Shown here: positions 29,592-30,342 of the stretch, piece after piece
Numbering within the stretch: the first letter of the stretch is position 1
Layout: every line of letters starts with the position of its first letter
Assembly: GCA_964534625.1 (NCBI GenBank)
Contig: CAZHRF010000039.1
Location: forward strand, 1 to 30,342
Length of the DNA: 30,342 nucleotides
DNA from: an uncultured archaeon
Lineage (GTDB): Archaea > Asgardarchaeota > Heimdallarchaeia > Heimdallarchaeales > Heimdallarchaeaceae
Direction of reading: 5' to 3'
Made by a program: the position numbers and the translations under genes
The notes under the pieces: generated by a model
Database searches by the model: none
Seen by the model: only the letters and a program-made list of their open reading frames with translations
Told to the model about the DNA's origin: nothing

Positions 29592-29873
29592 TTACAATTC
29601 TATAACTATTTTCTTTACATTAGTTTTACAGACTTTTCTGACACCATGATCACCAGGTTCGTATCTGCTCTTAAGTACACCCGCTTTTTCTAAGAATTTT
29701 ATTTGAGCTGAAACATTTGCTTCTGTTTGCCCTAATTCTTTGGCTAACTCATTAATGTTCATCTCTTTTTCTACTAAAAGCTTGGCTATTTTATATCTAG
29801 TATCAGAAGAAAGAGCCTTAGCTAGTGCAATAATGTCCGCTTCTCCAACAACATCTAAAACGTCACTCATCAT
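29592..29873 (-). CDS. ArsR/SmtB family transcriptional regulator
   Basis: KALSSDTRYKI, MNINELAKELG, NVSAQIKFLEKAG and PGDHGVRKVC. Confidence 0.9.
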   Translation of the reverse strand: MMSDVLDVVGEADIIALAKALSSDTRYKIAKLLVEKEMNINELAKELGQTEANVSAQIKFLEKAGVLKSRYEPGDHGVRKVCKTNVKKIVIEL

Positions 29874-30060
29874 TTATCACTCATGTTAACTTAAAAAAAA
29901 TGTTTAACTATTTTAATTTAACGCTTTTTAGTATATAAAGGTGAATGAGAAAATCTTAACACAAAAGCAAACTGATTCTTAGAGAAATAAATTATGGTAT
30001 TTTAAACATTTAATTGCTTATGTTAAACATTAGGATAGTTATTTAATGATGAGTTCTTTT

Positions 30061-30342
30061 GGGTACAACTGGGTACGTAACCCAATACACCCGCCAGTGT
30101 ATCACCTCACCCAACTGGACACGTGATAAAAGGAGAACAACACAAGAATACCAAGGTATCCAGTGTTGTTACACCTGGGAGCGATAAGTGTCAAGATTAC
30201 ACCAGCAATCTACAAGATTAACGCCAGTGTGTGGGTTCATCGCGACATTCTTCCCGGGACTCATTACTGGCCCAACTAGGCTTACTTGGCTCTCCTGAGG
30301 AAAGCTACCACCTCCGGGATGATAGCTGATACGTAAGGTAGA
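30061..30342 (-). ncRNA. Candidate large structured non-coding RNA (3' part; runs off the window), family unassigned
   Basis: GC is 138/282 (49%) against an AT-rich background. Several nested helices pair with G-U on the minus strand but would be C-A mismatches on the plus strand. No convincing ORF. Confidence 0.55.

Follow-up and report, generated by a model that had tools for sequence, protein, structure and literature searches.

The GC-rich, strongly folded segment that closes the window (the whole stretch of 30,342 nucleotides that was analysed, which is contig C39 of a 3.37-Mb assembly of 120 contigs that is 90% complete) is, with a probability that we put at about 80%, the right-end half of an element of 571 bp that has no gene, derives from a tnpB insertion sequence of Heimdall-group Asgard archaea and has a TnpB omega RNA scaffold as its interior. 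The assignment was made because this RNA sits directly 3' of tnpB in related genomes. Judged from sequence, it belongs to a known functional class, the TnpB omega RNAs, and is carried here on a gene-less, PATE-like derivative; the earlier note on this DNA had put it forward as a candidate unassigned large non-coding RNA, a label which does not stand as the RNA occupies the omega RNA position immediately 3' of tnpB in relatives. The novelty lies in a family that is new to Rfam, in a large scaffold and in unusual ends, the functional class being already known.

An omega RNA family that is absent from Rfam is now defined, with a covariance model and approximately 50 members in four genera, and the RNA is linked to a divergent, Cas12f-like clade of TnpB in the archaeal group closest to eukaryotes. 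The pair of RNA and TnpB is testable as a compact RNA-guided nuclease and bears on how systems of the TnpB/Fanzor type travel with different transposons, and the finding of AT-core, IS607-like ends without a linked transposase raises a small question on how such elements move.

A multi-copy element with precise ends

The GC content was 48.9% over positions 30061-30342, compared to 29.4% over 29600-30048 and 32.3% over the whole window. The sharp rise from 29% to 49% that was first noticed in this segment is real, but its edge lies at 30049/30051, where a repeat begins, and not at 30061 as had been stated. The 294 nt from 30049 to the contig end are the right-end-proximal part of this 571-bp repeat, which has no ORF (Table 1), and they are 83-92% identical to the copies on contigs C20 and C5, in addition to the closer copies given in the table. 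Contig C39 terminates inside the repeat and many other contig ends break off 33-55 nt into it; the contig end is an assembly break within the repeat and not a chimera, a possibility that the earlier note had allowed for.

The only complete copy (C27:21602-22172, 571 bp, 44.8% GC) contains no ORF of 60 amino acids or more, and the open frames of the A and B subfamilies are in different phases, therefore no coding content is conserved. The copy number, which the earlier note had proposed to check, is at least 14 near-identical (A-type) copies in the genome, with 98-100% mutual identity, plus older subfamilies; a total of 21 left-type and 11 right-type junctions were counted, mostly at contig ends. 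Searching with nhmmer and a profile of the family gave approximately 35 loci in the genome, which can be sorted into four groups: type A, of 571 bp; type B (C1 and C94), with approximately 60-70% identity to A; a 240-bp short form ending at an internal ...GGGACTCAT (four B copies and one on C11); and minimal 38-bp forms (C4:125491-125528 and C4:111330-111367). Nothing but the right-end repeats and their hairpin is present in these 38-bp forms, with ATG at one edge and CCCATG or CCCATC at the other; they are either solo ends or deletion products. The window-left end is common to all four groups and comprises ATGAGTTYTTTT followed by a 10-bp motif and its second occurrence, which forms the 5' arm of a hairpin, with the end motif and the hairpin arms co-varying among the subfamilies (GGGTAC, AGGCAG/AGGAAC, AGAGAA).

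In the orientation of the window, all copies read flank-Y/ATGAGTTCTTTTGGGTAC ... AAAAACCCATG/G-flank, where the slashes mark the junctions. A metagenome contig (L058, OMKS01039176.1) was found to carry a 97.9% identical copy with other flanks, and an uninterrupted paralogue of these flanks on contig C49 represents the empty site, reading ...TTTTAGG-AT-AGGTAAAG... compared to ...TTTTGGG-AT-(element)-AT-GGGTAAAG... at the occupied site. As AT flanks the element on either side and occurs a single time in the empty site, insertion is precise, the insertion site being CC-AT-G. This AT is either a crossover core or a 2-bp duplication, an AT core and a target duplication of 2-3 bp being indistinguishable from the junctions. 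Targeting of start codons, considered for the ATG at the junctions, was rejected, as right flanks read from the terminal ATG meet stop codons immediately. The last 60 or so nucleotides of the metagenome contig (L058:1920-1981) resemble a sequencing adapter (CTGTCTCTTATACACATCT...) and hence are non-genomic.

A large, probably minus-strand RNA structure

The window contains 294 nt, the 3' part, of an RNA-like unit of approximately 500 nt, which is the interior of the 571-bp multi-copy element and has a structure that is conserved with covariation. The earlier note had offered two readings, the 3' portion of a large minus-strand structured RNA and the RNA part of a mobile element, and both are thus borne out. 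When the full 571-nt element was compared with shuffled sequences, both strands folded better than the shuffles, the minus strand more so (z -3.97, with 0 of 100 shuffles as good, versus z -2.31 for the plus strand), supporting the folding excess proposed for the minus strand. The consensus pairs contained 41 G.U cells compared to 10 A.C cells, and so the asymmetry between G-U and C-A that had been seen by eye is real, although the count is somewhat biased by the structure having been derived on the minus strand. A plus-strand RNA ending at the hairpin and T8 was set aside on the grounds of this asymmetry, the z-scores and the orientation of tnpB in relatives.

Table 1. Positions in the window of the element, its right end and the elements of RNA structure
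Feature	Position	Strand	Remarks
Right-end-proximal 294 nt of the 571-bp ORF-less mobile element	30049-30342	-	99.7-100% identity to the C27, C15 and C80 copies
Flank at right end, possible guide 5' CAUUAAAUAACUAUCC...	30029-30048	-	Proposed by analogy with TnpB systems (PMC10055086; 10.1101/2023.11.20.567912)
AT dinucleotide	30049-30050	.	Every copy has it at each junction; single in the empty site
Right-end terminus GUACCCAAAAGAACUCAU (RNA strand)	30049-30066	-	Direct repeat of the hairpin 3' arm (10-bp end motif); predicted to mark the 3' end of the scaffold RNA
Terminal hairpin UGGGU-UACGU-ACCCA	30070-30084	-	Arms covary: GGGU/ACCC, UUUUAGG/CCUAAAA, AGAGA/UCUCU in subfamilies
Hairpin UAUCAC...GUGAUA, loop GUGUCCAGUUGGGUGAG	30100-30128	-	Block with the highest conservation in the family
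Subfamily-specific long hairpin AACAACAC/GUGUUGUU, cap GGAUACC-UU-GGUAUUC	30136-30170	-	
Nested helices GCGAUGA/UUAUCGC, CACUGGC/GCUGGUG, AAUCU/AGAUU	30181-30243	-	In helix 8, both sides of three pairs have changed
Three-way junction, closed by UCCCGG/CCGGGA	30252-30319	-	Matches model R1 positions 73-141, E 1e-13
AUGAGU	30259-30264	-	Inside the three-way junction; can pair with the 3' terminal ACUCAU
Three-way-junction hairpin GCC-UAGUUG-GGC	30270-30281	-	
Three-way-junction hairpin GCUUUCC-UCA-GGAGAGC	30289-30305	-	
CUAUC, 3' strand of a stem	30321-30325	-	5' partner GAUAG lies beyond the contig end

Read 5' to 3' on the minus strand, the RNA has a hairpin GUACU-CGGSC-AWU-GSYCG-AGUAC, a GAYAG/CURUC stem and a three-way junction with two hairpins, closed by CCYGG/CCRGG, and then a 3' module of approximately 240 nt which can be closed by AUGAGU...ACUCAU and which contains the conserved loop CCAGUUGGGUGA and the terminal hairpin before its end at ...GAACUCAU. 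The loop motif of the most conserved hairpin was found at 22 sites in this genome and its GGGUUGGGAAGAG block is invariant in the other genera, which have CACCUCC/GGAGGUG at the position of the nested helix CACUGGC/GCUGGUG.

Two sets of sequences were used to assess covariation. Alignment A1, of 11 minus-strand sequences of this organism (10 from the assembly and the L058 copy), gave 55 pairs in 9 helices with 92.4% of cells paired, compared to 36-46% when the partners were slid, and 10 pairs (25 cells) had changed on both sides, compared to 0-2 pairs (0-3 cells) in the slid controls. The second was made with R1, a covariance model of the 5' domain of the RNA with 149 positions; in 30 distinct sequences from 11 genomes, 94.5% of the cells in 36 pairs were paired, 26 of these pairs had changed on both sides and the covariation score was 0.445 compared to 0.13 or less for slid controls, pairing figures which are somewhat favoured by the alignment being fitted to the model. 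The covariation that the earlier note had made a check of its claim was therefore found in both sets, far above the slid controls. RNAalifold applied to the 3' module within genera g2 and g4 gave 1 covarying pair; variation within these genera is too low, and hence the support for the 3' module comes from the comparison between subfamilies.

Several of the helices which had been folded by hand were recovered in the comparative structure, namely GCGAUGA/UUAUCGC enclosing ACACUGGC/GCUGGUGU and AAUCU/AGAUU, in which the middle helix has compensatory changes between subfamilies, and the subfamily-specific AACAACAC/GUGUUGUU helix with its GGAUAC hairpin cap. A terminal hairpin was also recovered, but at 30070-30084 in place of 30061-30092. 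The long-range pairing of 30270-30281 with 30109-30120 was not recovered, and neither was a 10-bp helix between 30318-30327 and 30303-30312, which is present in the minimum-energy fold but competes with the three-way junction at 30252-30319, and it is the three-way junction that the comparative data back.

Relatives of the RNA and their tnpB genes

A search of the whole window against Rfam at gathering scores gave 0 matches, and over the segment and the full element only noise was returned (E > 2, with E of approximately 9-10 for the segment), no family being matched among RNase P, SRP, rRNA, group I and II introns, HEARO and others. Both strands were covered by the Rfam search, as the earlier note had recommended, and nothing matched, so that the RNA falls in no known Rfam family; an archaeal RNase P, put forward there as the alternative, was rejected, as neither strand matched an Rfam family even when E values of up to 10 were allowed. 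Strict motif searches beyond this genome found nothing in 82 genomes of the class, in 399 of the phylum or in viral contigs, and a strict motif search of a genome contig collection gave 6 matches, to bacterial MAGs, which is approximately the number estimated by chance. A weak DNA match in a sister genus had the same layout with different letters. The negative result of the strict motifs is misleading, as the covariance model later detected relatives: of the 30 further genomes that belong to the same family, 10 (in three genera) have 2-11 copies of R1 each, while 52 genomes from the other families of the class gave 0 matches.

At most of the R1 loci a long ORF lies upstream on the same strand, and the RNA domain begins approximately 20 nt before the stop codon of this ORF. 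The predicted product (477-507 amino acids, C-terminus ...CxxCGY..NADLNGAKNIAKR...) matches Pfam PF07282 (Cas12f1-like TNB) with E values of 3e-14 and 5e-9 and NCBIfam guided_TnpB with E values of 1e-20 to 5e-23, at 74-82 bits and hence below the curated cut-off of 100, and also has Cas12f2-like similarity. Full-length elements with the RNA directly 3' of tnpB on the same strand were found in 7 related genomes. In the relatives the RNA runs for 264-340 nt to the element end ...ACUCAU (in genome G024, 264 nt from the stop codon to an end reading ...AACTCAT). Conservation does not extend past ...ACUCAU in any copy of this genome, nor past ...ACUCAU or ...AAUCAU in the relatives, and the flanks differ.

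These parent elements are 1.79-1.85 kb long, have tnpB as their only gene and lie beside neighbour genes that vary by locus. Their left end starts with CATG and has two direct repeats, with a TTTTTATAGG box approximately 30-50 nt upstream of the tnpB start, and the right end repeats the left end imperfectly and in inverted orientation. All 6 full copies (1.79-1.85 kb) in the complete genome G007 have CC/AT ... AT/G flanks. The tnpB-only parents have been recently active in the complete sister genome, and the copies examined there are without a transposase gene. ORF-less versions, with left end, promoter and RNA, are present in genomes G001, G005, G016, G017 and G043.

The present genome has relics of tnpB (C1:15331-15477, C94:5829-6113 and C17:2-109), C-terminal relics preceding the B-type copies, and no intact tnpB of this clade was found in the 90%-complete assembly. 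The window-type element, on the minus strand, consists of the left end, short direct repeats, an archaeal TATA box (TTTATATA), approximately 190 nt of a probable gene relic, a scaffold of approximately 335 nt, a homologue of the RNA found 3' of tnpB in relatives, and the right end ...GAACUCAU. The left end and TATA box of the A element are homologous to the left end of the full elements, and no ORF-less copy, in this genome or in five others, has lost the TATA box.

Proposed working and alternative explanations

The promoter at the left end would transcribe the scaffold and continue into the flanking DNA, and this read-through would supply a 3' guide. A TnpB made elsewhere would bind the omega RNA of the element and would cut empty CC-AT-G sites that match the guide, favouring retention or copying of the element, while the DNA itself would move by precise insertion at AT, the likeliest enzyme being an IS607-type serine recombinase acting in trans. 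Five points of this scheme are inferences: that the element is transcribed, that a guide is formed, that TnpB binds, which motif lies next to the target and which enzyme serves as transposase. The motif of the left flank (CC-AT, loosely a non-T base followed by CAT) differs at one position from the right terminus (UCAU), and discrimination of self from non-self by CCAT versus UCAU is an unproven possibility. As the assembly has relics only and no intact cognate tnpB, it may be that the copies, 14 or more in number, are orphan RNAs. Nor need the compensatory changes be later than the loss of the gene: if all of them are older, they would be no proof that the gene-less copies still function.

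In one alternative explanation the copies are ordinary MITEs with a dead piece of a tnpB element as their interior, spread solely by way of ends that a transposase recognises and with an RNA that is no longer made or used. Such an origin would agree with the lack of an intact cognate tnpB, although an assembly that is 90% complete and breaks at repeats has possibly missed a copy, and also with the near identity of the A copies (at least 14, 98-100% identical), which therefore carry no signal of selection, with the truncation or interruption of older copies and with the existence of the 240-bp and 38-bp derivatives. Against it are the presence of a TATA box in every ORF-less copy, in this and five other genomes, and the retention of pairs by diverged ORF-less copies (C5, 83%; C20, 92%), and we consider it unlikely.

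It is less likely again that hairpins and repeats alike serve as signals in single-stranded DNA for an element of the IS200/IS605 (Y1) type, inserted 3' of CCAT and with a TCAT end, the RNA structure being incidental. The CCAT left flank and TCAT right terminus do fit a scheme of target motif and cleavage motif, there is no duplication past the AT, and tnpB is usually found in that family (PMC10055086), but each end here carries two direct 10-bp repeats, in inverted orientation, and not matching subterminal hairpins. A Y1 transposase is absent here and the single one in G007 lies away from all the end-motif sites listed there, and approximately 300 nt of covarying helices lie far from the ends, where they have no role in that mechanism. 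That the segment is a stand-alone host non-coding RNA gene (RNase P-like or regulatory) duplicated by chance is scarcely credible for, although it is GC-rich, structured and without an ORF, it has no Rfam match, is present in multiple copies, which have defined ends and different flanks and for which there is an empty site, and is fused to tnpB in relatives.

The mobilising enzyme

For the gene-less omega RNA element that we favour, IS607-like recombination in trans is the best guess as to how it moves, with about even odds of being correct. Searches of this genome for a Y1 transposase (PF01797) gave no match, while a Y2 search was silent in its control genomes too and so carries no weight. 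The resolvases of this genome are unlinked to the element, its one IS110 has an unrelated upstream region, its multi-copy ORF families are TnpB fragments only and no transposase was found on its short contigs; in all, no autonomous partner was found within this genome. No serine tnpA was found within or beside any copy in the genomes examined, and the IS607-type tnpA genes present in G001, G005 and G024 accompany a different TnpB clade and different ends. At four loci in these three genomes (L116, L120, L115 and L124) a serine-recombinase TnpA, with a MerR-like N-terminal helix-turn-helix, is followed by an ORF of 475-481 amino acids from an unrelated clade; these IS607-type elements are present in several copies, some with stop codons, and have ends unlike those of the omega RNA family.

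We give an outside chance to the element family being moved by an enzyme that is not yet tied to TnpB elements, such as an AT-core recombinase elsewhere, or to the large RNA having a mobility or retention role of its own beyond guiding TnpB, against a background of at least 14 near-identical gene-less copies alongside relics of tnpB only.

Comparison with known systems

The RNA resembles the TnpB omega RNA (reRNA) of IS200/IS605 and IS607 elements in being on the tnpB strand, overlapping the last codons of tnpB and running to the right end, in having a structured and conserved scaffold and in the flank past its end being positioned as a guide. It differs from them in having no sequence or Rfam match to the described families, in its extra 5' three-way-junction domain and in the divergence of the partner TnpB, which is below the NCBIfam cut-off and has Cas12f2-like similarity. 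Measured from the first conserved hairpin, the scaffold is 273-358 nt, which is long for a TnpB scaffold.

PATE-like elements have omega RNAs which are acted on in trans by TnpB (Meers et al., PMC10055086). Like those derivatives, the element described here has kept both ends and a guide-RNA scaffold without a protein gene, is multi-copy and would need both transposase and TnpB in trans; unlike them, its ends are direct-repeat arrays with an AT core instead of IS200/IS605 hairpins, it has kept its own archaeal promoter and no intact cognate tnpB is visible in this genome. It is also unlike IS200/IS605 elements themselves in that the genome has no Y1 HUH transposase and the ends are direct repeats, not matching subterminal hairpins.

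IS607 ends are marked by an imperfect inverted repeat at unequal distances from the termini, short direct repeats, a dinucleotide shared by both ends and the target, and the lack of a duplication (Chen et al. 2018, PMC6188088). The present ends are similar, in that one dinucleotide occurs at each junction and singly in the target, nothing beyond it is duplicated, short direct repeats are present and the imperfect inverted repeat lies 7 nt from one end and 18 nt from the other, but the core is AT here and GG there, and no copy has a serine tnpA. In the Clostridium botulinum IStron TGGG resembles TCGG (Zedaveinyte et al., 10.1101/2023.11.20.567912), and the CCAT left flank resembles the UCAU right terminus in the same way.

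Observations at individual copies

The complete A copy on contig C27 (C27:21560-22580; L009:4050-5580) lies between an N-terminal fragment resembling isoleucyl-tRNA synthetase and the C-terminal 135 amino acids of a TnpB of a different family. These mismatched flanks suggest a rearrangement between copies or a mis-join via the repeat, and a complete-looking ileS is present on C4. The TnpB relic was considered as a partner and rejected, since other copies of that TnpB diverge past the junction, making it a coincidental neighbour from another TnpB family.

An older A copy (C61:1-57 and C20:1-60; L005) was found to be split: a second insertion sequence, which has terminal inverted repeats of 20 bp (TACCGTACGAAACTGTTTTT) and is itself unassembled, lies in the loop of the copy's terminal hairpin. 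Two contig ends (C30:40781-40845 and C8:76974-77015) share the end motif (TTTGGGTACTTTTGGGTAAG) and run into a different unassembled repeat (AGAGAGTGAGGGATTTAAATAGGAAC...), which may be another element using the same end.

The 83%-identical copy at C5:56640-56900 is followed on the RNA strand by a 56-amino-acid ORF with a histone-fold-like appearance, a neighbour seen only at this one among the copies examined. In the window, an ORF for a 93-amino-acid ArsR-type winged-helix protein is present on the strand of the RNA (29592-29873, minus strand), approximately 175 nt past the right end of the element, and read-through out of the element would enter it.
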